Assembly: GCA_039096225.1 (NCBI GenBank)
Contig: JBBPEB010000021.1
Span: 496,001-560,000 of the forward strand
Origin: Blastocystis sp. Blastoise
Lineage: Eukaryota > Protista > Bigyra: Opalinata
Direction: 5' to 3'
Length of the DNA stretch: 64,000 nucleotides
The position numbers and the translations under genes were made by a program. How positions within the stretch are numbered: position 1 is the first letter of the stretch; each line of letters begins with the position of its first letter. This document shows positions 29,403 through 57,662 of the stretch, in pieces. The notes below the pieces were generated by a model. That model saw nothing but the letters and a program-made list of their open reading frames with translations, was not told where the DNA came from and did no database searches.

Positions 29403-29517
29403 ATTCTTCCGTTCTTCGAACTGCAGAAGGGGGTATGCAAACCCCGCATAGAGTCTGCGCGACGCGCGCAGCCATAAGCGGGGAAGACATCCCCCTTTTT
29501 GTTCTCGACGGAAGAAT
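29403..29517. other. 115-nt GC-rich imperfect hairpin at the left terminus of the virus
   Basis: Nested pairs attcttccgt/acggaagaat, gaac/gttc, aaggggg/ccccctt, ccccgc/gcgggg and ctgcgcg/cgcgcag. Confidence 0.85.
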
Positions 29518-30259
29518 TAATAACATTTCTGAAGTAAAATAACCATGGGAGTGTAGGGTAGTGTGTGTGTGTATTTATTTTTTCCCATGTTTATTTATTT
29601 TTAATTTATTTGTGTTCCGATTCCAACGTGAAACGTAAAGTGATCAAGGAGAAACTCATAGTAATCATAAAAGAAATAAAATACACAGTCCAACCCTCCC
29701 CTTTACAGAGAATATTCATGGAAAATGACTCCATCGTTGGTAAAGTGAGTAAAATAATCACGGGAATACAGAAAGAAATACGAAAAGAAGCACAGAATGT
29801 GCTAAATAAACACACACCCCGACCCTCCCTTTATATAGAGAAAAGATGAAATGGATGGTTCTATCTAAAAAGAAATAATAAAAATAATCACGGGAATATA
29901 TAAAAATAAAAATGTATGTATAGTGATCAATAAATAATATAAAAAGTCATGATAATCATAAAAAAATTTATATAAAAAGAGTAAAGTGATCAAGGTATGT
30001 ATTTATAGTGGGTGAAAGAAAAGCTGGTGGTGGTGTGGTCTTGTAAAAAGATGTACCCACCACCACGACTATAACGAGAGACTTTTGGAAACAAGGGTGA
30101 CCGTTATGGAAATAGGATGCGTCATCGTGAATTGTCCAATCAAATTGCTTAAAATTGTAAAAATGAGGGATTTTGGAACACAAAAACACAATTATAATAG
30201 GGAAACTGGGGAAACTAATTGTGTTCCAGTGGTTTTAGGTGGCGGCATGTATATCAATT

Positions 30260-30297
30260 TTCTAGAACATTCTAGAACATTCTCGAAACTTCTAGAA
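30260..30297. promoter_or_regulatory. Heat shock element array (8 nGAAn units)
   Basis: TTCtaGAAcaTTCtaGAAcaTTCtcGAAacTTCtaGAA, 45 bp upstream of ATG 30343. Confidence 0.8.
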
Positions 30298-30342
30298 TAA
30301 TAAATTGTATTATGCGTTTTTTATATTTTTATACTATATATT

Positions 30343-30510
30343 ATGGATTCTCCAAAGCAATTTGCTCCATATTATAAAGAAGGTACTTGGAAACCTTATG
30401 GAAATTTTGAAGTTGATGAATTAAGTGATAGTGATTCTGAAGTGGATACTATTCAAACTGAAAGTGAAGATGATTATGAAGATTATATAAAAAATTTTAT
30501 TGATTTTTAA
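30343..30510 (+). CDS. 55-aa acidic viral protein (below ORF-track cutoff)
   Basis: MDSPKQFAPYYKEGTWKPYGNFEVDELSDSDSEVDYIQTESEDDYEDYIKNFIDF. Preceded by an HSE array and followed by a ttgtttagtt 3' motif. Confidence 0.65.
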   Translation: MDSPKQFAPYYKEGTWKPYGNFEVDELSDSDSEVDTIQTESEDDYEDYIKNFIDF

Positions 30511-30611
30511 ATTAATTTTTATTAATAACAAAACAAATTGTTTAGTTTTTTGATAAAATATTAAAAAAAAAAAATAAATGTTTAAACAACAAATTTTATG
30601 AATAAATTTAA

Positions 30612-31733
30612 TTAATAAATCTTTTTTTTGCTTGCCTCCTTTAATTCTTTTGTCCATTTCTTTGGCGTTTTTGACGGTTTAATATCTGGTTTTGGTAATA
30701 AAGGTATATCCACTCTATTAACTTTATAATGATTATTTCCATTTTCAAAAAAATCTTTAGAATAGGCCAAATTCGTCATAGTATTAAACAATGGAAATGT
30801 AACTTCATCATTTTCAATATTTTGCAGATCATTTTGATAATTTTGTGTTAACTTATTTTGATATTTTTTAATTTCAGGATTTAGTTTTACTTTATTATGA
30901 ATACGAACATTATCAGTATTTGTTGTATGTGCAAAAGGGTAATATCTGTCTGCTAAAATATTTTTAGAATTTTTCGCATCTGGATCTTCCCACCATTGTA
31001 CGTCATAAGCATCATCTCTATTCTTTCTTGCTTGATTCGCCATTTCTCTTATTGCATATGTATCATCTTCTAGACTTTTTTTAAACCATTCTTTCATATT
31101 ATTAAATGTTTCTGCACCTTTATCAACTATTTTATTAACACCGTTAGTAATATTCTGAACACCACCAGTTAATCTATCAGCAACATGGTATACATCACCA
31201 ACGGCATTAAAAACATTAGAAAATAAATTACCACCTTTAGAATATAAATAACCTTCATGATCCTTTCTATTAAAATCTATTGCGTCTTCAATTGTGTTAA
31301 AATTTAATAATTTTGAATAAGTTTCATAACCATCAATATTATTACGTTTCATATAAGGTAAAACATAATCATGAGCATATATAAGTTTTCTTGTAAAATT
31401 CTTGGGAATTCTACCATCAGGTAACAGACCAGATCCTTCATCAATTGGTTCAGTCTCTTCGTATTCTTCGTATGAATTCTTTATAATATCGGGTCTATTT
31501 AATTTTAGAAATGAATAGAGTGGTTTCAGTGTAGCATTGTTAACCATATTACTTTCTATTCGCTTAACAGCAGCTAAAGAATTAGGAGCAATAGAATAAT
31601 TAATTGGATGACGTTCTTCTCCATCAGGAATAGATCCTGGAACAATATAATTTCGATATTCATGACCAGTAGCACGATGATTTACGCCTACTAATCCTTT
31701 ATTTGAAACATTTAAACGAGCACTTTGTATCAT
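30612..31733 (-). CDS. Viral hypothetical protein, 373 aa, probable virion/core protein
   Basis: Intact intronless ORF. EGSG-L and KGG-N candidate protease sites, the latter followed by amphipathic LFSNVFNAVGDVYHVADRL. Basic C-terminus. Confidence 0.8.
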   Translation of the reverse strand: MIQSARLNVSNKGLVGVNHRATGHEYRNYIVPGSIPDGEERHPINYSIAPNSLAAVKRIESNMVNNATLKPLYSFLKLNRPDIIKNSYEEYEETEPIDEGSGLLPDGRIPKNFTRKLIYAHDYVLPYMKRNNIDGYETYSKLLNFNTIEDAIDFNRKDHEGYLYSKGGNLFSNVFNAVGDVYHVADRLTGGVQNITNGVNKIVDKGAETFNNMKEWFKKSLEDDTYAIREMANQARKNRDDAYDVQWWEDPDAKNSKNILADRYYPFAHTTNTDNVRIHNKVKLNPEIKKYQNKLTQNYQNDLQNIENDEVTFPLFNTMTNLAYSKDFFENGNNHYKVNRVDIPLLPKPDIKPSKTPKKWTKELKEASKKKIY

Positions 31734-31845
31734 TTTATAAAATAATTATATTTTTTAAACAAAACAAAATAAAATATTGTATAATAAATTATTAATTACA
31801 AGATAATATATAAGAAATATAGATATATAATGTAAGGTATGCTAG

Positions 31846-32640
31846 TTATTTATTTTTTAAATAATCATCAAGAGGAATTGCTTCTCCATCTACATCAATA
31901 AATACTGTATTCTTAGTATATATTAATCTCTTATCACCAAAAGCATCACTATTAGTACAATTTAGTAATCCTGATTTAATATAATAATCGAATTCAAATT
32001 CACCATAAGACGCTTTCTTGTACTTATTTCTGTTTTTATCTTTGTATACTTTATCAGCTACCTTGAAATCTCTCACTGGTTGTGGGGGTGTTTCAGTTTC
32101 TTTTTCAGTTTCAGGTTTAGTTTCAGGCTTAGTTTCAGGCTCTTTAGATGGTTTCTTTTCGGGTTCAGGTTTAGGTTCTGGTTTGGGTTGTTCTTCAGTG
32201 AAATTAGAATTCATGGATTCTGGTTGTGGTTTCACTGTATAGTCTTCATTAGGATTTCTTACAGTATGAATAAGTTTTTCATATTGATAGTTATTAGGAT
32301 TACTAGCATCATACCATATCTTACTTGTAGTAGGAATACCATAATTCGTTTGCCATTGAGATAACATGGATGTATATCTATTGGTATCACCATTAGCTTT
32401 AGCTGAATTCATAGTAGCTATAAACATATCTTCAGGTGATTGACCATGATTTCTTAATGCTTGAACTGCCATTGAGCTATACATAGATCCTTGTGCATTA
32501 GGATCATGTGCTAATGGTTGTACAGGTTGTTCATCTTGACAAATATATGAATTGGGTAACCATGGATCCCAAGATTGTTTTTTCTGATTTCTTGATAAAA
32601 TATCATAGAGAGTTACACTATCTCCTAAATTACTTTGCAT
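31846..32640 (-). CDS. Viral hypothetical protein, 264 aa, with PEPK/ETKP linker
   Basis: Intact ORF with its own 3' motif at 31758-31767. No recognisable domain. Confidence 0.8.
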   Translation of the reverse strand: MQSNLGDSVTLYDILSRNQKKQSWDPWLPNSYICQDEQPVQPLAHDPNAQGSMYSSMAVQALRNHGQSPEDMFIATMNSAKANGDTNRYTSMLSQWQTNYGIPTTSKIWYDASNPNNYQYEKLIHTVRNPNEDYTVKPQPESMNSNFTEEQPKPEPKPEPEKKPSKEPETKPETKPETEKETETPPQPVRDFKVADKVYKDKNRNKYKKASYGEFEFDYYIKSGLLNCTNSDAFGDKRLIYTKNTVFIDVDGEAIPLDDYLKNK

Positions 32641-32717
32641 TATTTATTGTATTAATTTAAAAAATAATTATATAACAAAACAAATAATTAATTATGAAAT
32701 AATAAAAGTTAAAATAA

Positions 32718-33755
32718 TTAATTTAAATGGAATTTTTTTAAGAAGAATTGAACAAGATTAATAATTAAATTAGTAGTAGTATCAAAGGATGTAGAGTTGA
32801 CAAGAGCACCACCACAACGTTCAGCATTCTCTTTTGTAACACCACTTCCACCAGGATTTTTAAAGTAGTTATCAGCAGTTTCTTTACGTTTCTTATCATC
32901 ATCAGTAGTAATCATATTATAAGCGAAATCAATAGGGATACCAAGAGAAGGATAATAGTATTTTAATGCATTCACTACAATAGGAACAATCGTTTTAATA
33001 GTTTTAATAGCAGTATTAGCAATAATAGAATGCTTTTGTTTTGGATCCATAGGATATTCTTTATCGATAACGACATTAACAATATCACGTACAGACACAT
33101 GCTCATCATTTTTAGGTAATCGTTCTTTAATATCTTGTAATTTCTTCTTATTAGACTTTACATTACTAGAACGAATAGACTTCTTAGCAATAATTTTTAT
33201 TTGAGGAGTTACGAATTTACTTGTTTTCTTTTCTTTTTCTCGGTGACTCCCATGTTCTTTACGATGTTTCTGATGCCTTCTATGTATACCTTGACCAAAT
33301 ATATCATCATAATTTTCATCTTCAAGATTTGCATTATTATAATCTTTATCATCATCAGCCATCATTTTTCTTGTTATTCTCTTTGGTTGATAAGTATCAT
33401 CATCGTTATATAATTCATCATCTCTATTAGCATCTTCAATATGTTCTTCAAATTGTCTTTTCTTTTCTTCTTTTGCTTTTTCTTGACGTTTTTGTTCTTT
33501 ACGTTTCTGATAATAATTATATCCAGCAAATGCTCCTAATGTACCTAAAATAGGTAATGCAGTATAGACACCATTTTTAAAGTCAGCCCAATCAGCATCT
33601 CTAGTTTGTTGTCTAACAATTTCTTCAAAACCAGTTCCTCCATATCTTACATAACGTTTATGATAAAGATCACGTCTATTTGATTTTGGTGGTGATCCTC
33701 CAAATAATCGTGGATCACAATTTTGTTTTAAATATCTTTTTGTAATTGAACTCAT
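32718..33755 (-). CDS. Viral hypothetical protein, 345 aa, probable processed core protein
   Basis: Intact ORF with several GG/GxG sites (LFGGS, YGGTGF, FGQGI, PGGSGV, CGGAL), basic patches and a hydrophobic segment (ALPILGTLGAFAGY). Confidence 0.8.
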   Translation of the reverse strand: MSSITKRYLKQNCDPRLFGGSPPKSNRRDLYHKRYVRYGGTGFEEIVRQQTRDADWADFKNGVYTALPILGTLGAFAGYNYYQKRKEQKRQEKAKEEKKRQFEEHIEDANRDDELYNDDDTYQPKRITRKMMADDDKDYNNANLEDENYDDIFGQGIHRRHQKHRKEHGSHREKEKKTSKFVTPQIKIIAKKSIRSSNVKSNKKKLQDIKERLPKNDEHVSVRDIVNVVIDKEYPMDPKQKHSIIANTAIKTIKTIVPIVVNALKYYYPSLGIPIDFAYNMITTDDDKKRKETADNYFKNPGGSGVTKENAERCGGALVNSTSFDTTTNLIINLVQFFLKKFHLN

Positions 33756-33808
33756 AACAAAACAATAAAATAATTATGGTTTATATGACAAATTAAAATA
33801 TAAAAAAA

Positions 33809-34846
33809 TTAATGAAAAGATGGATAACCAGAATAATGTTTTTTATTTAAATAAGGATTAAAAATGCGTCGTTGACTATCTTGTATGATTTGATCTTGTA
33901 TGATTTGTAAGATGGATTCTTTAGGTTTATCTTTTTCATCTCGTTCAATACCTTTCAATGAGACTTCTTCTTCAACAGGTAAAAACTTCTTCATTTTCTT
34001 TTCATATGTAGATATATGTTCATTAGGACGTTTAATACCACTACCTGATACTTCACCTTGTTCTTCTCGTTTCTCTTTTTCACTATCTTCTTCTGTCCAT
34101 TTCCTTTTCTTTACCATCTTATATACATTCTGTTTACTACCACAATCAGGATTAGTCCATATTGTTAAATCATCACTACCTTGTTTTAACATAAAGAATT
34201 GATGTGGATCATTCATTAATTCTTCATCTGTAAGAATTTCATTTAGATTCGATGGCATAATCTTTAATTTATCTGGTAAGAATCCAGGATCACGTTTTAA
34301 GATTTGACTATTAATAAAGAAATGAGATACTTGACTTAATATAGATTGATTGGTAACATCTGTATGACTTTGAAGACATATAATAGCATTCTGTTTATAA
34401 TGACGACCTTTAGATAATATAGATACAATCAATTGTTTGGTTTGTCTAGATAATGGATAGATATCATCCAATACAATGAAATTATGTTCTGGTAATTTAT
34501 ATGTATTGACTAATTCATCAACAGTTTTAATCTTTTTAAATTTATCATCTACAGAATCATACCATTTATAATCAATTCCAGCATGTTCACAAATATCTTG
34601 AAAGGATGTATAACATTCATTCTTATTGGATGCATCAGGACAAATTACTGTGACTTGTTTATATTTATTTTTAAGATCCATAGAACATAAGAGGTTCACA
34701 GTTAAGAAAGATTTTCCTGAGAATGTTCTTGCAATAATCAATATGAATTTTGATTCATATGTTTTATGATGTGATTTTCCATATTTAAATTCTAAGACTC
34801 CACATCCTTTACGTGTTTCTTTTAATGGATTTATTTTATTCACCAT
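33809..34846 (-). CDS. A32/FtsK-HerA-type genome packaging ATPase
   Basis: Walker A ILIIARTFSGKS, Walker B FIVLDDI, GRH motif (SKGRHYKQN) and IICLQS. Confidence 0.9.
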   Translation of the reverse strand: MVNKINPLKETRKGCGVLEFKYGKSHHKTYESKFILIIARTFSGKSFLTVNLLCSMDLKNKYKQVTVICPDASNKNECYTSFQDICEHAGIDYKWYDSVDDKFKKIKTVDELVNTYKLPEHNFIVLDDIYPLSRQTKQLIVSILSKGRHYKQNAIICLQSHTDVTNQSILSQVSHFFINSQILKRDPGFLPDKLKIMPSNLNEILTDEELMNDPHQFFMLKQGSDDLTIWTNPDCGSKQNVYKMVKKRKWTEEDSEKEKREEQGEVSGSGIKRPNEHISTYEKKMKKFLPVEEEVSLKGIERDEKDKPKESILQIIQDQIIQDSQRRIFNPYLNKKHYSGYPSFH

Positions 34847-34915
34847 TTTATATGATTTTAATCAACAAAACAAAAAAATAATTAATGATAAGTTAAAGAT
34901 AAATAAATGATTTTA

Positions 34916-35587
34916 TTAAGATGCAGTAAAGTATATATAAAGATTTGTATTTGATAAATCAATTGGATTATTTAATTGATCATATACTTCCCATTGGATA
35001 TCTGTATATTTACCATCAATACATGGAATAGATAAATCACTGAGAGCAAATGTATTATCAAATCCTTGTTTAGCATATAAAGGAATAGAAATCAAATCAT
35101 TATCTTTATTAATAATATCACAATACACACGTAACATATAGATCTTATACCATGAAATATTATTGGATATATATTCATCAGTAAATACGATTGTATCACC
35201 CGGTGAAAAGTATGGTGATTTAATGCCTAAGTATTTAAATAGTCCAGAACTAAGACCACATTCAAACCAATGATTTGATTTAAAAGTTTTAGTTTCTTTA
35301 TTATAGCTGAAACCATAAGGTTCTCCTTCAACATAGGATTTCATTTTTTTTCCAATTTCATATAATTGATCTAAAAAATCTTCTAAAGTATAATTTCCAG
35401 CTGGAAATGTATATCTACCAGCATTATCATAAAACTGAATATTGAATTCAGGAATATTAATGATATCACTTGTATTCACTAATGTATTGATATGAGTAAT
35501 ATTTTTACCTACTAAATCCAAAGTATAATTGAATTGTTCATGACAGATTTGACTTGTAATTTTACTTAGATGAGATATTGATGTCAT
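34916..35587 (-). CDS. Minor capsid (penton-like) protein, 223 aa
   Basis: FPAGNYTLEDF, LFKYLG, LRVYCDII and IQWEVYDQLNNPIDL fit the Polinton/PLV penton pattern. Located between the ATPase and MCP. Confidence 0.7.
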   Translation of the reverse strand: MTSISHLSKITSQICHEQFNYTLDLVGKNITHINTLVNTSDIINIPEFNIQFYDNAGRYTFPAGNYTLEDFLDQLYEIGKKMKSYVEGEPYGFSYNKETKTFKSNHWFECGLSSGLFKYLGIKSPYFSPGDTIVFTDEYISNNISWYKIYMLRVYCDIINKDNDLISIPLYAKQGFDNTFALSDLSIPCIDGKYTDIQWEVYDQLNNPIDLSNTNLYIYFTAS

Positions 35588-35683
35588 TTTTATTAAATAA
35601 ATTAATTATGTATTGATAAACAAAACAATATTTTTAAGATTAATATAAAGTTGATACAAATAAGAAAATATTATATAATTAAA

Positions 35684-36907
35684 TTAATTGGTTGCACCAT
35701 CTCTAACAAATTTAACAAATATAAAATGAGCATATAAAGTATAAGTACCACTAGTAATATTTGCACCATTATATTCAGTTAATAAGGAGATATTAACTTC
35801 ACAACCACTACGAGTATTGACATCAACAACACTTGAAATAGGGAATATATAAATAGGTTGTTCATACCACTTTTCACCATTCAAAGGAGATTGAGGATGA
35901 CTATTACATCTCCAAGTATTATAAAGCATAGCATTAGGAATAATTTGTGATGGATTCGTTGTTTTATATGTAGTAGGGAAATCCGTCTTAGGTAAGATAT
36001 TTTGACCACCAATTTGGAATTGACACATCTTCAATAATTCAGTCTTAATAGGAATCATACTCTTCTCTTGAGTTGTAAAATATAGCATACAGTAATCAGG
36101 TACGAAAACAACACTTCTATTGGATAAGAATTGTTGTGGAGTTGGTTTACCTGCTGTTGAGAATGTTTCTGAATAAACAGGTGTAGTAAATGCAGATATT
36201 TGACAATTATTAGGAATACATTTAATCAAAGCACGTGGATCATTACCAAAATTAATATCATAAATTTGTTGAAGATGAATATAAACACGATCAAATGTTA
36301 ATGCAGTGATTTTAGTGGTTCCAGTAAATAGATTCTTTAAATAATTTGTAACGAATTGCATCTTCAAAGATTTTACTTTAATAGCACAATCAAATGTACC
36401 AAGACCAGTAATAAGAGATAAAGGAATAATAACTTGAGCTTTAGTAGAACTTTGCATTCCAGCAATACTACTTAAGGTTGTATTATATAAGCATTCTGTC
36501 ATACTATACATAGATTTATCAATTTCATCTTTACTTAATTCTTTAATAGTAACAAATTTTCTTGCTTTACTGGATTCAATAGAAGATTCAGAATAATTAA
36601 TAAGAATATCTTGACCCGTAGGAGATACAAACGTAAGATCTGTAGTAATTTTATCAATAATACTATAGATATTAGAATGTTGTACAACAGAACTAGTTGT
36701 AGCTGCATTTGTTGTAATATTGAAATTCAGTTCTAAGAATGAATTACTGAAATCAATAAAAGGACTATCAACTGAATTATATAAGAATTCAAATGGATAA
36801 GGTTGATTTAATAAATCTTGACTAGTAGAAACTAGAATAGGAATTTGTACAGGTTTAATAGTTTGATTTGCCTTTGAAGGTAAGAATTGTCTTGGGAATC
36901 CTTCCAT
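35684..36907 (-). CDS. Major capsid protein (double jelly-roll) paralog 1, 407 aa
   Basis: Beta-rich. N-terminal FIDFSNSFLELNFNI..NIYSIIDKI, then IPL and VPDYCMLYF..FQIGGQNILP, matching the DJR MCP pattern. Gene context supports it. Confidence 0.75.
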   Translation of the reverse strand: MEGFPRQFLPSKANQTIKPVQIPILVSTSQDLLNQPYPFEFLYNSVDSPFIDFSNSFLELNFNITTNAATTSSVVQHSNIYSIIDKITTDLTFVSPTGQDILINYSESSIESSKARKFVTIKELSKDEIDKSMYSMTECLYNTTLSSIAGMQSSTKAQVIIPLSLITGLGTFDCAIKVKSLKMQFVTNYLKNLFTGTTKITALTFDRVYIHLQQIYDINFGNDPRALIKCIPNNCQISAFTTPVYSETFSTAGKPTPQQFLSNRSVVFVPDYCMLYFTTQEKSMIPIKTELLKMCQFQIGGQNILPKTDFPTTYKTTNPSQIIPNAMLYNTWRCNSHPQSPLNGEKWYEQPIYIFPISSVVDVNTRSGCEVNISLLTEYNGANITSGTYTLYAHFIFVKFVRDGATN

Positions 36908-37080
36908 TTTAATAATTATTGTTTATGTATTTTTTAACAAAATAAAAATAAAATAATAATAATATTTTATAATTATAAAATTATTTGAAATTCATAACAA
37001 AACAAATGATTGGAATATAGAATAGAATAGAATTAATTAAACAAGTTAACGTTAAGAATAGTAAGTAAGAAATATTAAAT

Positions 37081-38553
37081 TTAAATATCACGTACACTAC
37101 GTACAGCAATCATATGTAATGTATAAGGATGCTTCTCATTTAGTTCAGTATTAATATGTTTATAAATACCAGCATGAGAAGCAACGGCATAAGAAGCACC
37201 AGTGTCAGGTGTCCATATTTTAGTAGTTTCATTATATGTACATGTATATCCATCAGGAACAGTAGATGAATCAGCATGACCATATTCAATATCATGGACA
37301 TCTAGATTACAATCAAAATTCATTTCTATACCACTATCTGATTGGATATTCATTAATGCTTTAGTTGGAATAATATAAATAGGATGTTTAATCCATTCAT
37401 CATATTTAAGAATAGTTTCAGGATTTGAATTATCAGCCCATAAACAATATAGATTTTTATTAGGACAAGATAAACTAGCAGTTTCTTCATTATTGAAGAC
37501 ATGACCTTTAGTAGTAAGATTATGATAATACATTTGAGTAGGGAATTCAGTTTGAGGGAACATTTGAACATCACCAATCAAACAACTTTGATATTTAGGC
37601 CATACAGATGGACTTGCTACATTACTAATAGTTGTTGAACTATACCCATTTGTAAACCAGTATAATATATATTCAGGTATAAATGGTAAAGCTCTATTGA
37701 TATTGAAATGATCACTAGTTATTCTTGTATTTTGATAATCGACTTGAATACATGTAGGTATAGTTTTATATAATTCATTCGTTTGGAATTGAATATCTTT
37801 ATAAGTCATTAAATTCATAGTAGCTGATTCCAATTCAAATGTCTTAAACCATTTTTCATCAGTTAGATGTAACCATTGTGTTGATAATTTAGCACCACCA
37901 TTCTTGAAATAAATACTCATATTATTATCAATTAAGGATTCAATTGTACTCGTTCTAAATAGCATATTGAAATGTTTAGTTAATATTAAAGAATCTCCAT
38001 CAACACCTAAACCACTAATGAGATATAAAGGAATAGCAATATGAATAGATTCATTTGGATGTGCACGTATATAACGAATAGAATTCAATTCATAAGTATC
38101 TGCAGATAAATCTTCACCATACATAGATTTTTCTAAATCATTCTTACTGATATCTTTTAATAAAATCATTTTACGACCACGTGAAGCATGTGTACAGTTT
38201 TCTTCATATTTCAAAGCACGATCAGATCCATCAGGTAAAGTATAAACCATTTCAACATCAGTGGAATCAATAATAGAATAAATATTAGCTTTTTGAACTA
38301 ATTGATCCAAGAAATATTGACATAATTGATCATAGGTGAAACTAACAGAAGTACCTGTTTCATCTAAATAAACAGAAACTGGTCCAGCTTTATCTGTGAC
38401 AGTTGCCTTGACAGTAAGATCCAAATAGGATTGATTGAAATTGATATAAGTGTTATCCACATTAGTCCAATGATATTGAAAGATATAAGGACTTGATAGA
38501 ATATCAGTATCACTTTGAATAGGAATATTATCTTTAATTCTTAAGATTCTCAT
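37081..38553 (-). CDS. Major capsid protein paralog 2, 490 aa
   Basis: Colinear similarity to 35684-36907 (NIYSIID, KSMY, IPLxLIxGLG, PxTxFPT, PIYIxP), with insertions. Confidence 0.75.
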   Translation of the reverse strand: MRILRIKDNIPIQSDTDILSSPYIFQYHWTNVDNTYINFNQSYLDLTVKATVTDKAGPVSVYLDETGTSVSFTYDQLCQYFLDQLVQKANIYSIIDSTDVEMVYTLPDGSDRALKYEENCTHASRGRKMILLKDISKNDLEKSMYGEDLSADTYELNSIRYIRAHPNESIHIAIPLYLISGLGVDGDSLILTKHFNMLFRTSTIESLIDNNMSIYFKNGGAKLSTQWLHLTDEKWFKTFELESATMNLMTYKDIQFQTNELYKTIPTCIQVDYQNTRITSDHFNINRALPFIPEYILYWFTNGYSSTTISNVASPSVWPKYQSCLIGDVQMFPQTEFPTQMYYHNLTTKGHVFNNEETASLSCPNKNLYCLWADNSNPETILKYDEWIKHPIYIIPTKALMNIQSDSGIEMNFDCNLDVHDIEYGHADSSTVPDGYTCTYNETTKIWTPDTGASYAVASHAGIYKHINTELNEKHPYTLHMIAVRSVRDI

Positions 38554-46604: not shown

Positions 46605-46638
46605 TATAATAGTAAATATTACTTTATATTTTTAAATG

Positions 46639-46686
46639 TTCTAGAACCTTCTAGAACCTTCTAGAACCTTCTAGAACCTTCTAGAA
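46639..46686. promoter_or_regulatory. Heat shock element array (10 units), distal to the primase-helicase
   Basis: (TTCtaGAAcc)4 followed by TTCtaGAA. Confidence 0.8.
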
Positions 46687-46796
46687 CATCATTTTTATAC
46701 TTTAGTGTTTTAAATGTATATACAATAAACAAAACAATTTTCAATGATTTTTTACAAGTTTATAAGTAAAAATAGAAAAATAAACAAGAAAAATAA

Positions 46797-47420
46797 TTAA
46801 ATTTCAATTGGTTCTTGACTATTAATATATGTACATGAATGAGGCCATCCATTCTTATCATATAAAATACCATCCCAGAAATACATTTGTTTTGAAGGAT
46901 CTCTTTTAATCTTGTTAATACTCTTAGCATGAACAACTTCATAAGAATAAACTTTACCTTTTTCATCATAGAGAAATCCATCTTCCATATGGAATTTCAT
47001 AATATCAAAATCATCATCTTGAGAATTCGAATGTTCTTTAGAATCTTCAGAACATAAAATAGTAGTTCTATCACTTTCTAAAAGATCTTCAGTATTGATA
47101 ATATCTTGAATATCTTGTTCTTCATTAAGTTGTTGAGTATAAATATCAGCAGCGAATTCTTCATAATCTTCAAGACCTTTAATAACCGCGTTTATACGTT
47201 TTAAAGCTGATCTATAGTTTTCGACTTCGAAAGAAGCAAGACGTTCTTTAGATTTTGCAATACCCAATAGATTCTTTTCTCTATTCAATTGAGACTGATG
47301 TAAATCAATATCACGAAGAACATTCTTATGAACTTCAACAGCCTTCTTAGAATTCTTTAGAAGTTCCATACGAACAGTTTGAAGACATTTACGGGAATCA
47401 GCAGAAAGATTAAATTGCAT
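46797..47420 (-). CDS. Viral hypothetical coiled-coil protein, 207 aa from the first ATG
   Basis: Long heptad region, acidic middle and small beta-rich C-terminus. 3' motif at 46728-46737. Confidence 0.75.
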   Translation of the reverse strand: MQFNLSADSRKCLQTVRMELLKNSKKAVEVHKNVLRDIDLHQSQLNREKNLLGIAKSKERLASFEVENYRSALKRINAVIKGLEDYEEFAADIYTQQLNEEQDIQDIINTEDLLESDRTTILCSEDSKEHSNSQDDDFDIMKFHMEDGFLYDEKGKVYSYEVVHAKSINKIKRDPSKQMYFWDGILYDKNGWPHSCTYINSQEPIEI

Positions 47421-47531
47421 TATAATCGCGAATATCGTTACAGAGAGAAAATTTGTATTTATCAAAATGAAATAAATAATACATTTAAATGGAATATTAA
47501 ATATTCTAGGAGACAGTGTAGAATCTCTATG

Positions 47532-47705
47532 GAATGTTCTAGAAGGTTCATTTGATTGGCTAATTTTGTCGACTTAGCATTTAGTATTTGTGTTTCGATG
47601 ACGAACATAGTCGGCATCTGTAATCTGATTGGATAAAAAAATTAGTAAAACACAATTAGACGATGACGACGATGTGTCATACGAAATAAGTTATTTTATT
47701 GGCTT
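47532..47705. promoter_or_regulatory. Bidirectional promoter with an HSE (4 units) and three reverse CCAAT boxes
   Basis: GAAtgTTCtaGAAggTTC at 47532-47549. ATTGG at ~47555, ~47628 and ~47698, between divergent ATGs 47420 and 47819. Confidence 0.65.
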
Positions 47706-47818
47706 ATTTTCCAGCTGGAAGCAATAGGCTTTTGTTAGCAACTGAAATGAAGAACTGTACACTAAAAATAGTATATTTAATATATTGTATAAAAATACTT
47801 TTGAAGGTTTAAATAATC

Positions 47819-48346
47819 ATGGAAATTCCTGATAGTCTTTCTGCCAGTTTATCCCCTTTCGGTCAAGCCATGATATCCCCCTTGTTGAATCCATTTGAAA
47901 ATAGTGTTTCTGCAAATCCTATGGCTTTACCCAATGATAATGATTTCTGTTTTAATTCGCGTGACGAAATCATGTTTGAAGATCCACCTCAAGAAATTCA
48001 TCCAATCAATGATGTTTACGTATCTAAAAATCCAGATAGATATCATTCGGTTAACAATCAACCAATACAATTTCAAGATCAAGTAAATACAAATCCTAAT
48101 AAGCAAGCATTATTATTTACAAATGAGGAGTTAACAAATATATCCAGTCAATTCGAATCTTTATTTCAAACTATGGAAACGGCTGATAATATATTAAATA
48201 GTATTTATTGTACTGTTGATCATTTAAAAACAAAGATTGAAAGTCAGAAACAAGATTTAAAACAGATTCATGATGATTCTAAAGAAATTGTTTCATTATT
48301 ATCCGAATATTCTATTCCTTCTATGTCTGAAATATTTGATCATTAA
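47819..48346 (+). CDS. Viral hypothetical protein, 175 aa (acidic/disordered N-terminus, C-terminal coiled coil)
   Basis: Intact ORF followed by TTGTTTTGTT at 48369-48378. Confidence 0.8.
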   Translation: MEIPDSLSASLSPFGQAMISPLLNPFENSVSANPMALPNDNDFCFNSRDEIMFEDPPQEIHPINDVYVSKNPDRYHSVNNQPIQFQDQVNTNPNKQALLFTNEELTNISSQFESLFQTMETADNILNSIYCTVDHLKTKIESQKQDLKQIHDDSKEIVSLLSEYSIPSMSEIFDH

Positions 48347-48436
48347 TTTATTTATTTAATTAATTATTTTGTTTTGTTTATTTTTTTTTTAAATTAATTA
48401 CACAAAGTTTAAATGGAGAATAGAATAGTTTCAAAT

Positions 48437-48544
48437 AGAATTCTTGAATGGTCTAATGGATCTATTAAAGAAATATGTAACCACAGTATCATGGTTCGAT
48501 TCCGTTAAAATGTTTCCATTAGATTATTCAAGTGTTCTTTTTTT
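48437..48544 (+). ncRNA. Putative RNA polymerase III small RNA, VA-RNA/EBER-like architecture
   Basis: A box TGGTCTAATGG 48449-48459, B box GGTTCGATTCC 48493-48503, terminal stem 48437-48460/48515-48538 with G-U pairs, T7 terminator 48538-48544. Confidence 0.72.
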
Positions 48545-48590
48545 CTAGAACCTTCTCGAACATTCTAGAACCTTCTCGAACCTTCTCGAA
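48543..48590. promoter_or_regulatory. Heat shock element array (10 units) upstream of the SSB gene
   Basis: TTCtaGAAccTTCtcGAAcaTTCtaGAAccTTCtcGAAccTTCtcGAA, ending 76 bp before ATG 48667. Confidence 0.8.
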
Positions 48591-48666
48591 CATTGATTCA
48601 TTTGAAAAGAATATCTAAATATATTAGTATTAAAATACTTATATTTTTACTAAATACTTAACTAAA

Positions 48667-49260
48667 ATGTCTTCAACTGAATTTAAGAAACCTGCTATTC
48701 TTGATACTTCTAACTTTAATTTACAATGGGATGACACCAAAGAAAATGCTGTTCTTTTAAATAATAATCATCGTGTATGTATTTCTACTGATGCTACACC
48801 ATGTTTATTTGGTTATATTGTTACACGTGATAAATGGACTTTATTAACAATTGAAGATGATAATCAAGTATTCTTAACTGCTTATAAAGAACTTTATCGT
48901 AAATTATGTGAATTATGTCCTGATGGTGATATTGTTAATTTTGTACGTATGGATAATGGTAAATATAAGATTACAATTAAAGTACCTATTAATGCATCGA
49001 AGAATGTTACTATTGATATTACTGATAAAAGAGATAAGAAGATTAATATCGGTAAAGATCCTAAGTTAACTTACGAAGAAATACGTGAAAAGTATATTCC
49101 ACCAAATACGTTATGTAAAGTATTATTTACAATACATGGTATTCATCGTTATAATAACAAGTATTATATTGGTTTATATGCTCGTTCTATTAAAGTCATC
49201 GATAAATCTACGAAGAATACTAATAGTAATGATACTATTATTGATTTAACTAATTTATAA
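48667..49260 (+). CDS. Probable OB-fold single-stranded DNA-binding protein
   Basis: C-terminal IPPNTLCKVLFTIHGIHRYNNKYYIGLYARSIKV plus a short acidic tail resembles T7 gp2.5/NCLDV-type SSBs. Replication-gene context. Confidence 0.6.
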   Translation: MSSTEFKKPAILDTSNFNLQWDDTKENAVLLNNNHRVCISTDATPCLFGYIVTRDKWTLLTIEDDNQVFLTAYKELYRKLCELCPDGDIVNFVRMDNGKYKITIKVPINASKNVTIDITDKRDKKINIGKDPKLTYEEIREKYIPPNTLCKVLFTIHGIHRYNNKYYIGLYARSIKVIDKSTKNTNSNDTIIDLTNL

Positions 49261-49335
49261 ATTTTTAATGTTAAATTTATTTTTTATTAATATATTTGTT
49301 TTGTTTATAAATAATTTTATAATTGAAATAAAAAA

Positions 49336-50964
49336 ATGCAAAGTTGTATATTAGGAATGCCAAGTCCTGGTACTTTTGGTATGAATTTAATTTCAACTGG
49401 AAAAGAATATAGGCGATATAATACACAACCATTACATAAAATGGATCAATATAATCCAATATTTCATGAAATAGGTCCAAATTCATCTATGCCTGTGTCT
49501 ACTTTAGAAAGTAAAGAAATACATGATGGTAAAGAAGATGATTATGTAGATCGTTCTAAAACATTTGGTAAAGATGCTGTTCCACAAGGAAATGGTGCTT
49601 TAATTCGTGCTAGAGCAGCAGGTAAAGGTGTAATGAAAGCAGCTGGTCCAGAAGAAGATAAAATAGATGGTGAAGATCGTCAATATAAAGTATTAAATCC
49701 TTGTAAACCAAGACGTAAATCTGGTAGAGGAATTATTCCAAATAAATCAGAAATCAATAAATTAGAGAATAATCAAGGTTCTGGTATTGGTGATGCAATT
49801 AAAAATAAAGTAAAAGATATGTATCAACGAAATGTATTAGATATAAGAGATGCTATTGTAGATAAAAAAGCTAATAGAAAAGCTCGTGATGCATTAGCTA
49901 TTTTAGCTCAATATGTTGGTGATGGTCATCATGATCTTGATGATGAATTCAAAAGATTCTATGAACATAAAATTAAACGTGGTGGAAAGATTCCTATATC
50001 TGTTGCTTCAGCAATTATGAATGCAATTAAAAATAAGAAAATGATTAAGAATCCAAAATTAAGAAGAATGTTAAGACCTTCAATTATACCAAAATATATA
50101 GATTTAGATTCAGCTCAAAGTGGTGATGGTATATTAAGAGTTAAAAGAGGTGGTGGATTCTGGGATGGAGTTATGAATTATGCACCAGCTCTTTTAGGTG
50201 TAGTTGATAAAGGTATGGATTCTTTTGCTAAAGGTAGAAAAGCTTATTATGATACACATTTGGCACAACAGTCAAGTGAATTAAATGATATGGAATTTGA
50301 AATGGAAAAATTAAAACGTCAACAAGCATTAAATGAAATGAAAAAACAAATAGGTTCAGGAAATACTATAAATAAGATGTTTGAAGGATATTATGATGTA
50401 GCTGATGAAATGCAAGATGCTCTTGATGAAGATGATAGATTACATCCACAACCCGTTGTTCAACCTCCACCACCTCCACAACAACAAGTTGTTAGACCTC
50501 CTCAACCTCAACCTCCTCAACCTTATAAGCCAATGTCTCGTGATGAACAAAGTTATTATTATAAGATTTATGGTTTCCCTCAAAATGATAAGGAGAAAGT
50601 CGATAGAAAATGGAAAGAAGATGAAAGGGATAAACGAATAGCTGCAAGAAGAGCTAAACGTAGAGGTTATGGTGGTCGAGTTAAATTAAGTAAAGAAGAA
50701 TTCTTAGAACGAATGAGAAGAGGAAAAGAAGCTAAAAAGAAAAAAGGTGGTGATTTACCTCCATTAGTAACAGCTTATACAGATTTTGTAATACCTGCAC
50801 AAGTAGAACAAAGGAAACGTAAAGTAGTTAAAAATGATTTAAAACAATTACAAATTATAAAACAGAAAATGGATAATAATGAAATATTAGATAGAGGTGA
50901 GCAAATGTTTTGGAAAGAAAAGAAGTATATGTTATCAAAAAACTCAGGGGAGGGGATCTGGTAA
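49336..50964 (+). CDS. Basic core polyprotein precursor, 542 aa, with many GxG/GG cleavage sites
   Basis: At least 10 motifs (QGNGA, AGKGV, SGRGI, QGSGI, RGGK, SGDGI, RGGGF, IGSGN, YGGR, KGGD, SGEGI). K/R-rich with a P/Q-rich linker. Confidence 0.8.
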   Translation: MQSCILGMPSPGTFGMNLISTGKEYRRYNTQPLHKMDQYNPIFHEIGPNSSMPVSTLESKEIHDGKEDDYVDRSKTFGKDAVPQGNGALIRARAAGKGVMKAAGPEEDKIDGEDRQYKVLNPCKPRRKSGRGIIPNKSEINKLENNQGSGIGDAIKNKVKDMYQRNVLDIRDAIVDKKANRKARDALAILAQYVGDGHHDLDDEFKRFYEHKIKRGGKIPISVASAIMNAIKNKKMIKNPKLRRMLRPSIIPKYIDLDSAQSGDGILRVKRGGGFWDGVMNYAPALLGVVDKGMDSFAKGRKAYYDTHLAQQSSELNDMEFEMEKLKRQQALNEMKKQIGSGNTINKMFEGYYDVADEMQDALDEDDRLHPQPVVQPPPPPQQQVVRPPQPQPPQPYKPMSRDEQSYYYKIYGFPQNDKEKVDRKWKEDERDKRIAARRAKRRGYGGRVKLSKEEFLERMRRGKEAKKKKGGDLPPLVTAYTDFVIPAQVEQRKRKVVKNDLKQLQIIKQKMDNNEILDRGEQMFWKEKKYMLSKNSGEGIW

Positions 50965-51058
50965 AGAGTAAAGATGAAAAACTTATTCAAAATTCAATGA
51001 ATTGTGATAATCCTATTATATCTGATAAAACTCGTCATGTTACTCCTAGATCCCCTGA
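50937..51058 (+). promoter_or_regulatory. -1 programmed ribosomal frameshift signal
   Basis: In-phase slippery heptamer A AAA AAC 50937-50943, a 7-nt spacer, then aggggatct 50951-50959 complementary to agatcccct 51048-51056. The downstream ORF is in the -1 frame. Confidence 0.72.
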
Positions 51059-51530
51059 TAATTTCAAACAAACTCTATCTCAATATTGTAATATACCAAA
51101 TTCTCTAATATCTCAATTATATAATTATGCTTATTTAAATAAACCTACCTCATCTGTTGCTTGTGATCGTGCTGAAAATGTTATGAAACAATTAAATAAA
51201 ACAAATTCTCAATCTTATAATTATTATAATAGTTATGATGATTTTGAACAAAATATAGATCAAGATCAAACTAAATTTAATATGATCTTCCATGAAAGTC
51301 CTAGTGATCCTTATAATGGTCATTTTGAAGCTGTTATTTATAATGGTAATAAAAATATAGAACACTATTCATCATTAGGAAATAAACCTACTTTTTCAAA
51401 ATCATTTATTCAAAATCATAATATTCAATATAATCCTATTCAACACCAAAAAACTACAAGTAATGCAAATGGTTGCTTTTATTATTCTTTACTTTATTTA
51501 CTTTCTAATGGAAATCTTATGCCTTGTTAA
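50943..51530 (+). CDS. Adenain/Ulp1-like (clan CE) maturation cysteine protease, probably made as a frameshift fusion
   Basis: NGHFEAV (His), IEHYSSLG (the usual FDS/FEP-x-G strand), QHQ (oxyanion Gln) and NGCFYYSLLYL (Cys). The track start 50910 is TTG; the first ATG is 50997. Confidence 0.75.
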   Translation, partial: LRGGDLVKSKDEKLIQNSMNCDNPIISDKTRHVTPRSPDNFKQTLSQYCNIPNSLISQLYNYAYLNKPTSSVACDRAENVMKQLNKTNSQSYNYYNSYDDFEQNIDQDQTKFNMIFHESPSDPYNGHFEAVIYNGNKNIEHYSSLGNKPTFSKSFIQNHNIQYNPIQHQKTTSNANGCFYYSLLYLLSNGNLMPC

Positions 51531-51534
51531 AACA

Positions 51535-51552
51535 TTCTAGAATATTCTAGAA
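51535..51552. promoter_or_regulatory. Heat shock element (4 units)
   Basis: TTCtaGAAtaTTCtaGAA upstream of ATG 51617. Confidence 0.7.
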
Positions 51553-51616
51553 TCTTTAATTTATTATATTAATATTTTGTATAATTAATTTGTTTTGTTT
51601 ATTATTTAATACTATA

Positions 51617-51772
51617 ATGACAAAGAAACGATTTGGCAATTACTACTTAGATCGTAGTGCAGAAATTTTAGAGAATGTAAATGAAATACTGTCAGTTATT
51701 GAAATTGTTCTTATTATTATATATATTTTACTTTACTTTTATATGTCCAAGAAACGTTCTAGAACATTCTAG
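51617..51772 (+). CDS. 51-aa single-pass membrane protein
   Basis: MTKKRFGNYYLDRSAEILENVNE-ILSVIEIVLIIIYILLYFYM-SKKRSRTF. HSE upstream and 3' motif at 51843-51852. Confidence 0.55.
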   Translation: MTKKRFGNYYLDRSAEILENVNEILSVIEIVLIIIYILLYFYMSKKRSRTF

Positions 51773-51779
51773 AACATTC
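51757..51779. promoter_or_regulatory. Heat shock element (5 units)
   Basis: TTCtaGAAcaTTCtaGAAcaTTC upstream of ATG 51875. Confidence 0.7.
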
Positions 51780-51874
51780 ATTTTGAACTGGCTCTATTTG
51801 TAGAATCTTTAATTTATTATATTAGTATTTTATATAATTAATTTGTTTTGTTTAATCATTGGTTAATTTAAATA

Positions 51875-52009
51875 ATGAACAAGAAATATCTTAGTTATTC
51901 TTATTTTTGTCGTGTGATGAAGAATCTAAAAGAAGAAGGAATTAAATCTAAAAAGAATGAAATAGCAAATCTATTAGAACAATTTCTTATATATAAAAGG
52001 GATAAGTAA
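51875..52009 (+). CDS. 44-aa basic protein (below ORF-track cutoff)
   Basis: MNKKYLSYSYFCRVMKNLKEEGIKSKKNEIANLLEQFLIYKRDK, with an HSE upstream. Confidence 0.5.
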   Translation: MNKKYLSYSYFCRVMKNLKEEGIKSKKNEIANLLEQFLIYKRDK

Positions 52010-54605
52010 GCACAAAATTGTACTGATATAAATGGACCGATTACTTTTTTGTGTTACGTATCTATGTTACACTGATAACAGAGTAAGATACTAAATGAAA
52101 AACGTATTCTGACGCGCTTTTAAAATTTTCAAAAATTCCACGTCTAAGGGCCTAAAACGGTCAGACAAAAAAAAAATTAACGGAAATGCCCCAAATAATT
52201 GGCTAAAATTCAAAATTAAAATTTGTATCCAATAAACATATTTCGTACATAAAATTCCTATTTATTTTTCATTTTCTCAGAAATTTTTTCATTTTTTACA
52301 TTTTTCTACTTAAAAATTTCTTTTTATATTTTGTAAAATTTATTTTTTATAAATTTCATTTTTAAGTTATATTTTTCTTTATGATGTACTTTATATTTGT
52401 CATTAAATATTAATATAATTTATTTTAAATGCATAACATTTCTCGCCACATGTATAAACGATTTTTAAACTTTAAAAAGACAATTAGACAAGAATCCTTT
52501 TTTTAAGAGACTTTAATTGATTGAGATTAACTTATATACATAAAATAACCTGAGTAATGATAATATATAAAGCTTTTAAAAAAATTGATCCACAAAGTAT
52601 TGAGATATCGGACACATTCTCTTTTGACTCCTTTGAATTTTAATGAAAACTATCTGGATCATCATGATAACTCATGAAACCATCCTAAAAGTCATTAAAA
52701 CCTGTTTTTGACATGTTGAAAAATTGACAAAAAACTTCAATCGCGCGTTCTGTCAACATTTTTTATTTTATTAATTTTTAAACGTTACAGGATTTATCTT
52801 ATGAGTTTATATTCATAAATTATTTGAACACATTTTTAAAATAAAAAGGTCGAAGAGATATCGAAATCATTTCACTCTTAATAAAGAAATTTTGACTTAA
52901 TATTTGTAGTTTAGATAAAATTCGCCACTCATTGAACCCATCAGGTTTCTTTTAAGACAAGAATGAGTGGATATATGTTTGGTTGACCCTCATAAAATCA
53001 AATTCTGATTTTATATATGAATACAGTGACCTCTACCATACACAAATATATCATTATTGCATGTTTATGACAACAAAGTTGGTGTATCGGCAGATTTCGA
53101 CCCCATTAATTTCGACTTATGACTTTATATTTGGTGTAAGGATGCCCAATAAGATACATTATGATATTTTATGTCTTTAAAGGCTTTTTAAAAAAGGTCA
53201 CAAAAAGTTAATTGCGACTTTGTACCAAAAAAAGTCGTCCTAACACACTTTTTAAAAGTCATATTAATAGTTATTATACTATTACATAAATATATAAAGT
53301 CAAAATATAAAATATCGTTGGGTCTCGGTGTCAAAAATGAAAAAGAAATTTTGCGTTTTCTCAAAAATTTTATTTTTGATGTTTCAACTAAGGTCAATTT
53401 CGACCATTATTATTATGTTTTTATTATTTATTTTTGTCATATTTAATACTATATGTGTCTATCTTATAAAATATATGAAAACTTTATAATATTATATTAT
53501 ATTAAAAGTTAAAATAAGATAAAAAAAAAGAGGTCTTGACAGAATTATCTACATTATTTTTTAAGTCAAACACATGAAGATTATGGACTTAATTCATAAT
53601 TAATATTATATTTCTACATAATAATATTATAAATGTTTTATTATTATGCTAATTTTTATAAAATAATACTTTTTGCAAACTGATATAGATGTAATTGTTT
53701 TACAATCTTAATTAAAAAGGTTCAAATTTTTTTATAGTGATCAATAATCTTATTAATCTCTGTTTGAAACACATAAGAAGATGAGCTAACAATAAAAATG
53801 AAAAAGAATATTTTAAAACTTTCAGTATTTTTCTTTTCTTTTCTTTTTTTTATTGTACTGTATTTAGAAATAGATTTAAATACATTTAGCAAGTCATTTC
53901 ATGAACAGAATTAAAAGCGCCAATTGTAGAATGTCTAATTAATGAATTATTAACTGATTGAAAGAATGATTGCCTAATTGTGAACAAAGAAACTTTAGCT
54001 GATTTTAGAGTGATATAAGAAAGGGTTACTTAAAACTACTATGCTATTTCTACGTTCAACATATTAATATATTGGTAACAACCAAATCATTCTTTATTTT
54101 AATAATTCCTTCTGTAAGTTTATTTTCATTTTTGTCTTTATCGTGTTTTTATTAATTAATTTATATATGTATAGAGAGTAGATGATAAATATAATAAATT
54201 ATATTTGGTAATGATACAATGTAAATGGGTAAACTAATGATACAGGGGATAATGTATAACTTTTTTATTAGGTATGCTATTACTCATCTTAAGAATTGAC
54301 TGTTACAACTATGCTATCCAAAGAAAGAAAAGAAAGAAAAGAAATGTAGCTGGAAGTTATAAATAAATGGTTGGTTATTATGAAAAAAATGATATGAAGA
54401 TTCCGTTTTTAAAAGTTCACCATTCATTTTTTGATATGTAAATTCACCACAAAATATCTTTGATGTCATGTATATATTTATATTATAATATATTATTTCT
54501 TTTATTATGTATATCTTTTTGATTTATTAAACCATTTGTTTTAATATACCTTTTATATATATAGAAGGTGCTTTTTGCTAAATCTTTCAGTATTGTTTAA
54601 GTACT

Positions 54606-57662
<3,057 letters not shown>

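Follow-up and report, generated by a model that had tools for sequence, protein, structure and literature searches.

The window analysed here, 64,000 nucleotides of contig JBBPEB010000021.1 of Blastocystis sp. Blastoise (positions 496,001 to 560,000), carries at 29403..52060 an element of about 22.6 kb. This element is probably one integrated copy of a multi-copy polinton-like virus (PLV), which encodes neither a DNA polymerase nor an rve integrase, is expressed in the host nucleus, and has its replication genes switched by the host heat-shock factor (HSF). The reading draws on a major capsid protein (MCP) and a tyrosine recombinase (YR) recognised by their predicted folds, a helicase domain recognised by sequence profiles, numerous near-identical copies in the same assembly, and regulatory signals of host type around the genes. 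For the MCP, recombinase and primase-helicase ORFs, the best database matches are 'hypothetical proteins' of Blastocystis sp. Blastoise at 99% identity. This host, isolated from a Russian tortoise as strain Rus-B, has a genome of 33 Mb at 23% GC (PMC10690189); in the accessible parts of that genome report, viruses come up in the introduction and in one reference title only.

Genes, limits and copies of the element

The open reading frame (ORF) of 490 aa is, judged by its modelled structure, a double jelly-roll (DJR) MCP, designated MCP-A. Its AlphaFold2 model, built from a 14-sequence alignment (pLDDT 75.4, pTM 0.77), gave 178 Foldseek matches in the PDB at E<=0.001, headed by the MCPs of Singapore grouper iridovirus (SGIV), Sputnik, PBCV-1, PRD1 and mavirus. 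By VIA-align, over residues 1-490 in each case, the Z scores were 20.2 (faustovirus), 19.7 (PBCV-1), 18.7 (mavirus) and 18.5 (Sputnik). The original prediction had expected its MCP candidates to fold as double jelly-rolls, and for MCP-A these Foldseek and VIA matches to DJR MCPs bear it out. A second ORF, MCP-B, is paralogous to MCP-A (BLASTP E 2e-39, 28% identity along most of the protein) and aligns within the MCP-A family alignment; the element therefore has two MCP genes.

The 598-aa ORF is taken as a two-domain tyrosine recombinase, again on the strength of a structural model. In a VIA-wide structure search independent of Foldseek, the best scores were obtained with Cre (Z 10.4; 287 residues aligned, model residues 13-381), XerA (9.8), XerD (9.8) and XerH (9.3). 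The seven best rows were all Cre, Xer or phage-integrase chains, one of them from a mycobacteriophage, and type IB topoisomerases and lambda integrase came after them. Both the core-binding and the catalytic domain were matched, the N-terminal integrase domains aligning with residues 1-150, and residues R200, K239, R318, H358 and Y367 are invariant in an 11-sequence alignment. The protein has no Pfam match of its own; PF00589 was touched by two of the 11 family members (best E 0.048), and a profile search of PDB sequences gave nothing meaningful.

Sequence profiles indicate that the 975-aa ORF contains a P4/D5-type SF3 helicase domain: it matched phrog_1156 (2.3e-9) and TIGR01613 (1.1e-8, below the NCBI cut-off), and DUF5906 was found in five of six family members. 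The original prediction had described this gene as an AEP-PriCT2-SF3 fusion. The SF3 part stands, and the other two are leads: PriCT-2 (PriCT_2) matched one of the six family members, at E 0.042, and the AEP motifs (DxD, GIH, D) at residues 68-180 were read by eye only. PDB sequence searches with this protein yielded nothing meaningful. The window copy is 25 codons short of the 1000-aa form present in 12 of the 14 other copies listed, owing to a C-terminal frameshift: the ~32 terminal codons can still be read as far as ~43478, in a different frame. Hence the earlier description of the element as intact and uninterrupted holds for the block of open ORFs and fails for this gene.

The identities of the remaining morphogenesis genes are weaker leads. 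The 223-aa ORF, a candidate penton without a Pfam match, has ESM Atlas neighbours at 0.96-0.97, among them DUF5901 clusters of nucleocytoplasmic large DNA viruses (NCLDV) and Sputnik V18/19 clusters. The predicted packaging ATPase matched phrog_2666, 'terminase large subunit' (1.2e-10), and shows a Walker A motif at residue 39 and a Walker B motif at residue 123; Pfam DEAD (2.8e-4) and FtsK_SpoIIIE (0.051) were both below cut-off, and the PDB sequence search gave nothing meaningful (ORC5 at E 0.23). The putative adenain-like protease lies at ESM Atlas values of 0.96, 0.95 and 0.94 from viral clusters with PF00770 (Peptidase_C5) in 13-62% of their members; a His...Gln...Cys order can be read by eye, and no sequence match was found in Pfam or PDB. 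Thus, of the complete morphogenesis module first proposed, the MCP is established by fold, and penton, ATPase and protease are candidates. The single-stranded DNA-binding protein (SSB) of that proposal is not supported, as the 197-aa ORF concerned found no family match in Pfam or PHROGs and noise only in NCBIfam.

None of the 16 principal ORFs of the element reached a Pfam gathering score. When 36 ORFs of the window (these 16 and 20 non-repetitive flank ORFs of at least 90 aa) were searched, no Pfam match to pPolB or rve appeared. Terminal inverted repeats (TIRs) were likewise not found between the two end regions, either by repeat comparison or by BLASTN, including at the proposed ends 29403 and 52060. 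Within the window, then, the absence of pPolB, rve and TIRs holds as first stated, and, together with the DJR MCP fold, the YR fold and the SF3 domain, it upholds the idea of a polymerase-less, tyrosine-recombinase provirus of polinton-like or virophage-like type. Since these three hallmarks were sought and not found, the element is not a Polinton/Maverick in the strict sense.

ORFs fill 84% of the span of the element, whose GC content is 26.8%, compared with 21.0% in the left flank and 22.1% in the right one. Under the standard code, the 16 ORFs of 140-975 aa lie between 30612 and 51530 in four co-directional blocks, and three small ones are added at 30343-30510, 51617-51772 and 51875-52009. 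All 17 ORFs checked start with ATG, and the stop is TAA in 16 of them and TAG in one. A ciliate or other variant genetic code was considered and rejected; it is needless, because every ORF of the element is open under the standard code.

Element ends at 29403 and 52060 are plausible. The left one is a 113-nt palindrome, unique in the window, for which a DNA hairpin of -32.6 kcal/mol was computed (z -6.6; none of 200 shuffles folded equally well). In the adjoining non-coding control region, GTAAAGTGATCAAGG occurs twice exactly and in two variants, and AATAATCACGGGAATA-like motifs two to three times. BLASTN of the element ends matched only the heat-shock-element arrays described below and AT-rich sequence. 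The best direct match between the end regions, ATGAAAAACGT at 29280 and 52095, is 11 nt long, which is a chance-level length. Rfam and tRNA scans of the window gave no match, and integration into a tRNA gene was not seen.

At least 19 gene copies of the element are present on 13 contigs of the same assembly, mostly at 97-99.8% protein identity. The number of distinct sequences per 90% cluster is 21 for YR, 19 for the primase-helicase, 15 for MCP-A, 12 each for the 811-aa and 542-aa ORFs, 11 for the ATPase, 10 for the 223-aa ORF and nine for MCP-B, and all members of these clusters come from this assembly, where their contigs have 13 different lengths. Compared with the window copy, identity is 90.0-99.8% for MCP-A (at least 98.8% in 11 of 14), 97.8-99.8% for YR, 98.8-99.6% for the primase-helicase, 96.5-99.7% for the ATPase and 93.5-99.6% for the other genes. 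Among the other copies listed, full length is kept by 11 of 14 YR, 12 of 14 primase-helicase, nine of 10 ATPase and 10 of 11 811-aa genes; shortened forms have 125, 534 and 585 aa (YR), 255 aa (ATPase) and 740 aa (811-aa gene). The provirus is therefore not a solitary one, and with at least 19 near-identical copies, mostly of full length and at ~99% protein identity, the suggestion of a divergent, possibly active lineage gains support. At 22.6 kb each, some 20 copies would occupy, by estimate, roughly 1-1.5% of the 33-Mb genome.

Copies are often neighbours, as judged from locus tags (7610-7620 with 7624-7633, and 3901-3911 with 3916 onward), and four copies share one contig; one adjacent pair is inverted and at least one is tandem. 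Such an arrangement may point to insertion next to resident copies or inside them, which would explain the adjacent pairs. Side-by-side copies are found at WA158_007610-7633, 003901-39xx, 003341-3364 and 003485-3511, on contigs of the assembly other than that of the window.

More distant paralogues, at 34-49% identity, are also encoded in this genome. Among MCPs, WA158_005805, 006917, 008446, 005820, 003043 and 002975 have 29-51% identity to MCP-A or MCP-B, and these divergent sequences show that additional lineages of this virus family, older ones or distinct ones, are integrated in the genome. An MCP profile search among 1.84 billion representatives retrieved 13 proteins only, all internal to the family, and no relatives of the MCP, YR or primase-helicase were found in IMG/VR and JGI metagenomes. 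For YR, 163 homologues were obtained, and related clusters of 343, 83, 52, 38, 33 and 12 members derive from ENA/Logan assemblies. Relatives at 43-49% identity recur in many assemblies, and the longest contigs of the clusters measure 21.8-25.9 kb, close to the length of one unit.

Signals at gene starts and gene ends

A heat-shock element (HSE) consists of at least three contiguous, alternating nGAAn/nTTCn pentamers. The element has seven arrays of TTCTAGAAC with a 10-nt period, each of them an unbroken run of 4-10 alternating nTTCn/nGAAn pentamers and thus an HSE by definition. All 17 matches of the two-unit pattern TTCTAGAANNTTCTAGAA in the window fall inside the element, where 0.11 would be expected, and so do 35 of the 38 matches of the three-pentamer HSE consensus, in seven clusters (shuffle mean 0.65). 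The genes preceded by an array, at a distance of 46-270 nt, are the small acidic ORF, the primase-helicase gene, the divergent 207/175-aa pair, the 197-aa ORF and the two right-end ORFs, and no others; no array occurs in the 13 kb that hold the structural genes and YR. From this placement at replication genes, it is likely that host stress, and not a helper giant virus, wakes the element.

It is conceivable, if somewhat unlikely, that the TTCTAGAA arrays are not HSF sites at all, and serve instead as iterons of a replication origin or as operators for a DNA-binding protein encoded by the element. They are tandem, palindromic and periodic at 10 nt, as iterons often are, and the largest pair is located at the primase-helicase start. 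Moreover, a motif of the TTCTAGAA type is not present in the host flanks of the window, and its use by the host is therefore not demonstrated there. On the other hand, iterons or operators would not account readily for the strict alternation of 4 to 10 nTTCn/nGAAn units in every array, which is the textbook form of an HSE, or for the distribution of the seven arrays over six separate gene starts, which differs from a single origin-like cluster.

The second signal, GTTTTGTT, occurs at 20 sites in the window, 16 of them in the element. All 16 are intergenic, in sense orientation to the upstream ORF and 24-107 nt past its stop codon; the shuffle mean for the intergenic count is 0.32, and no copy is present in 19,023 coding nucleotides. 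A copy lies within 110 nt of the stop in 15 of 19 ORFs, in sense orientation (TGTTTTGTT). At the primase-helicase gene, GTTTTGTT lies ~30 nt beyond the stop of the unshifted frame. In human-subtype Blastocystis, 96% of 2,419 genes were reported to have TGTTTGTT four nucleotides behind the poly(A) site (PMC4159000, in the portion available), and we predict from the sequence that GTTTTGTT is a poly(A) downstream element like this GU-rich motif.

A different function, that of the element's own promoter or transcription-start motif acting on each downstream gene, appears unlikely. It would agree with the fact that 11 of the 16 sites end no more than 36 nt from the next ATG, as a promoter or initiator might, and with the duplicated right-end units, in which GTTTTGTT is placed between the HSE and the ATG. 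Nevertheless, GTTTTGTT stands behind the last gene of every co-directional block (373-aa ORF, YR, primase-helicase and 175-aa ORF), all four of them without a neighbour reading in the same direction, and neither of the divergent promoter regions (MCP-A/811 and 207/175) contains it, so that the first genes of both pairs lack it upstream. Because of this presence at block ends and absence from divergent promoters, GTTTTGTT fits a 3'-end signal better than a promoter, and its resemblance to the published Blastocystis element (PMC4159000) speaks for the same.

The HSE arrays and the Blastocystis-like poly(A) motif are both of host type, and for this reason expression of the element by the host RNA polymerase II (Pol II) is predicted. 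The original prediction had named host Pol II/III; the sequence signals favour the former, and nothing points to Pol III.

Weight of the evidence and comparison with known viruses

Several observations weigh against the reading of the element as a PLV copy under host control, besides the iteron-like geometry of the arrays and the closeness of GTTTTGTT to start codons. The termini are not defined by any repeat, and neither long direct repeats nor convincing att-like repeats were found between the end regions. The window copy carries the primase-helicase frameshift, and the penton, protease and ATPase assignments come from weak or indirect evidence. The YR lacks an evident canonical His of the HxxR box; a pLDDT of 59.7 marks its model as a low-confidence one, and none of the Foldseek matches reached E 0.001, the best being XerA at 0.032. 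Finally, the host genes of the tortoise isolates were described, in the part of the study consulted, as having no enriched downstream motif (PMC12129017), and a reading of GTTTTGTT by the 3'-end machinery of this host is therefore putative. A host of the tortoise clade that reportedly has no conserved poly(A) downstream element would harbour a virus that apparently keeps one.

With a host-controlled PLV as the preferred account, the following course of events may be proposed. Stress would activate the host HSF, upon which Pol II would transcribe the early (replication) genes; the primase-helicase would then recruit a host DNA polymerase, and the genome would be copied. The two MCPs and the candidate penton would build an icosahedral capsid, to be filled by the packaging ATPase and matured by the protease, with every mRNA cut and polyadenylated at the GU-rich downstream element. 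The recombinase would insert a circular form into the chromosome, often beside a resident copy; excision through a circle, as in the original prediction, may likewise be supposed from its presence. Tentatively, and with distinctly less confidence, one may go further and suppose a temperate, helper-independent family of Blastocystis viruses with some 20 proviruses per genome, a host-HSF switch, and free genomes of ~22-26 kb that recur in gut-type assemblies.

That the element is dead or domesticated, its copies having spread by segmental duplication or recombination with no particles formed, seems to us very unlikely. The frameshifted primase-helicase of the window copy, the shortened YR, ATPase and 811-aa genes of some others, and the many copies that adjoin one another would all suit such an origin; against it, most copies keep full-length ORFs, the identity of ~99% extends across 13 contigs, and many assemblies contain relatives at 43-49% identity, whose contigs stop close to the length of one unit. 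Least credible is a virophage-like element that stays silent until a giant virus infects and is then transcribed and replicated in the virus factory: the MCP-A model matches the Sputnik and mavirus MCPs (Z 18.5-18.7) as well as those of NCLDV, and a set of YR, primase-helicase, MCP, penton, ATPase and protease is common to many virophages and PLVs (10.64898/2026.06.19.733378, as far as available), but the regulatory signals are of host type (HSE arrays, CCAAT-like boxes and a Blastocystis-like poly(A) motif; giant-virus promoter motifs as such were not searched), and a survey of gut giant viruses, in its accessible part and for one virus group only, found no gene flux between egoviruses and Blastocystis (10.1101/2024.03.23.586382).

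Like Sputnik and mavirus, the element combines the DJR MCP fold with a small, integrase-coding genome, and a Sputnik V18/19 cluster is among the language-model neighbours of its candidate penton; unlike them, it has no known helper virus, and its regulatory signals look host-type. The genes used by mavirus are rve and pPolB. Heat-activated transposons, e.g. ONSEN/Copia78 of Arabidopsis, have HSEs in their promoters, through which host HSF ties their activation to stress; these are long terminal repeat (LTR) retrotransposons, in contrast to the capsid-encoding DNA virus described here.

The PLVs that have YR with an AEP/SF3 protein (Aquintoviricetes-type; PgVV/Gezel and TsV groups) come nearest in organisation. 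They are alike in a size of ~22 kb, in the DJR MCP, in candidates for a penton, a packaging ATPase and a cysteine protease, in the replacement of rve by YR and of pPolB by a primase-helicase, and in being integrated in many copies in a protist genome (10.64898/2026.06.19.733378 and PMC10120064, both as far as available). The Blastocystis element differs from them in having no sequence-level link to any catalogued PLV in MCP profile and pattern searches (PLV reference profiles not included), in its host, an anaerobic gut stramenopile and not an alga, and in its two MCP paralogues, HSE arrays and host-like 3' motif. Trimcap PLVs share with it more than one DJR MCP gene and a stramenopile host, in their case marine MAST (10.64898/2026.06.19.733378, in part); they have three divergent MCP genes and in the element two were found, a separation made by description.

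The MELD virus of Blastocystis (Starrett et al. 2021) has the same host genus and virion proteins that could not be recognised by primary sequence (PMC8502044, in the passages available), and an uncharacterised 'MELD virus sp.' protein is the best BFVD structural match of MCP-A (E 3.5e-17, TM 0.66 by target length). However, an adintovirus-like PolB and an integrase are reported there (PMC8502044), and neither is found in the element. By its sequences, the element would represent a new lineage among polinton-like viruses and, for Blastocystis, a second viral lineage beside MELD virus, seemingly unrelated to it. Our literature search on Blastocystis polintons, PLVs and tyrosine recombinases returned no description of this lineage, and none of the titles or abstract openings retrieved pointed to HSEs in polinton, PLV or virophage promoters. 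A 2023 survey of endogenous viruses in protists lists ten Blastocystis assemblies among its genomes, and the name was not met elsewhere in the available text and supplement (PMC10120064).

The virology of Blastocystis is almost undescribed, the PolB- and integrase-bearing MELD virus being the one reported in the literature as far as it was accessible to our search. From the HSE arrays ahead of the replication genes, heat or stress is predicted to induce the element, and a temperate, HSF-switched family, if real, would give Blastocystis, which is more common in human and animal guts than any other eukaryote, its first inducible virus-host system. Blastocystis is also hard to transform, and the element could supply promoters, terminators and a recombinase for genetic tools.

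Remaining features and flanking DNA

Table 1. Features of the element, in order of position in the window
Feature	Position	Strand	Remarks
GC-rich imperfect palindrome, ~113 nt	29403..29516		proposed left end
Non-coding control region	29517..30255		short repeated motifs; no ORF of 80 aa or more
HSE array, 8 TTC/GAA pentamers	30260..30297		46 nt upstream of small acidic ORF
Small acidic ORF, 55 aa	30343..30510	+	
16 copies of GTTTTGTT (mostly TTTGTTTTGTT)	30527..51852		oriented with the upstream ORF; predicted poly(A) downstream elements
373-aa ORF	30612..31733	-	N-terminal ~66 aa common to 542-aa ORF
264-aa ORF	31846..32640	-	Pro/Glu/Lys/Thr-rich repeat
345-aa ORF, highly charged	32718..33755	-	one hydrophobic helix-like stretch; weak PHROG matches near residues 68-114 only
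Predicted genome-packaging P-loop ATPase, 345 aa	33809..34846	-	
Candidate penton (minor capsid), 223 aa	34916..35587	-	language-model neighbours
MCP-B, second MCP paralogue, 407 aa	35684..36907	-	BLASTP to MCP-A
MCP-A, double jelly-roll MCP, 490 aa	37081..38553	-	by predicted fold
811-aa ORF, candidate virion or spike protein	38629..41064	+	12 cluster members in genome
140-aa ORF	41134..41556	+	
Cre/Xer-like tyrosine recombinase (YR), 598 aa	41636..43432	+	modelled catalytic core at residues 1-390, low-confidence tail beyond
AEP-like primase (candidate) fused to P4/D5-type SF3 helicase	43478..46480	-	open frame of window copy ends at 43553 (975 aa)
Two HSE arrays, 8 and 10 pentamers	46567..46686		87-206 nt upstream of primase-helicase start
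207-aa ORF	46797..47420	-	
Divergent promoter region	47421..47818		4-pentamer HSE (47532-47549); three ATTGG (CCAAT-box-like) sites; no GTTTTGTT
175-aa ORF	47819..48346	+	
HSE array, 10 pentamers	48543..48590		77 nt upstream of 197-aa ORF
197-aa ORF	48667..49260	+	'SSB' of the original prediction
542-aa ORF, basic, Gly-Gly-rich	49336..50964	+	candidate core or minor virion protein; 12 cluster members
Candidate adenain-like (Peptidase C5) cysteine protease, 177 aa	50997..51530	+	
Two short HSE arrays (51535-51552, 51757-51779)	51535..51779		each in a duplicated ~57-nt unit (95% identity) upstream of a small ORF
Two small right-end ORFs, 51 aa (hydrophobic stretch) and 44 aa	51617..52009	+	

The 373-aa and 542-aa ORFs, located near opposite ends of the element, have their conserved N-terminus of ~66 aa in common at a BLASTP E of 2e-6. 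At 90% identity the 373-aa protein is a singleton, in contrast to the 9-21 cluster members of the other genes, and it may be a variable gene; no family match was found for it in Pfam, PHROGs or NCBIfam. The 811-aa ORF was equally without a family match in these three collections. Two identities considered for it were rejected: as a third MCP, it obtained an hhalign probability of 0.3%, and as a penton multimer, it gave in BLASTP to the 223-aa ORF short motif matches only (E 0.16). The exact sequences of the 55-aa acidic ORF and of the 51-aa and 44-aa right-end ORFs were not present in the protein collection.

The element is flanked by intron-split, host-like genes for a glycosyltransferase, a WD40 protein, an AAA ATPase and a PHD finger protein. 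An exon-like open frame at 29160-29400 on the minus strand adjoins its left end, and no continuation of this frame was seen to the right of the element. Directly to the left there is a near-perfect (AAT)n microsatellite of ~450 nt (28700-29150), which gives rise to spurious poly-Ile/Leu/Asn ORFs. It is preceded, at 27014-27930, by two tandem units of ~488 nt (71-82% identity), a 25-nt piece of which recurs at 30149, in the non-coding region of the element, at 88% identity. On the right side, an AT-rich block at 54800-56000 contains degenerate repeats, 10-nt-periodic or of ~80/150/300 nt, and many inverted pairs among them. A separate mobile element, a Helitron, is situated ~6 kb to the right of the provirus; its Rep/helicase ORF of 1644 aa (58955-63889, plus strand; Helitron_like_N 7.7e-58, PIF1 4.2e-61) is apparently intact and stands beside an Asn-rich ORF at 57832-58998.

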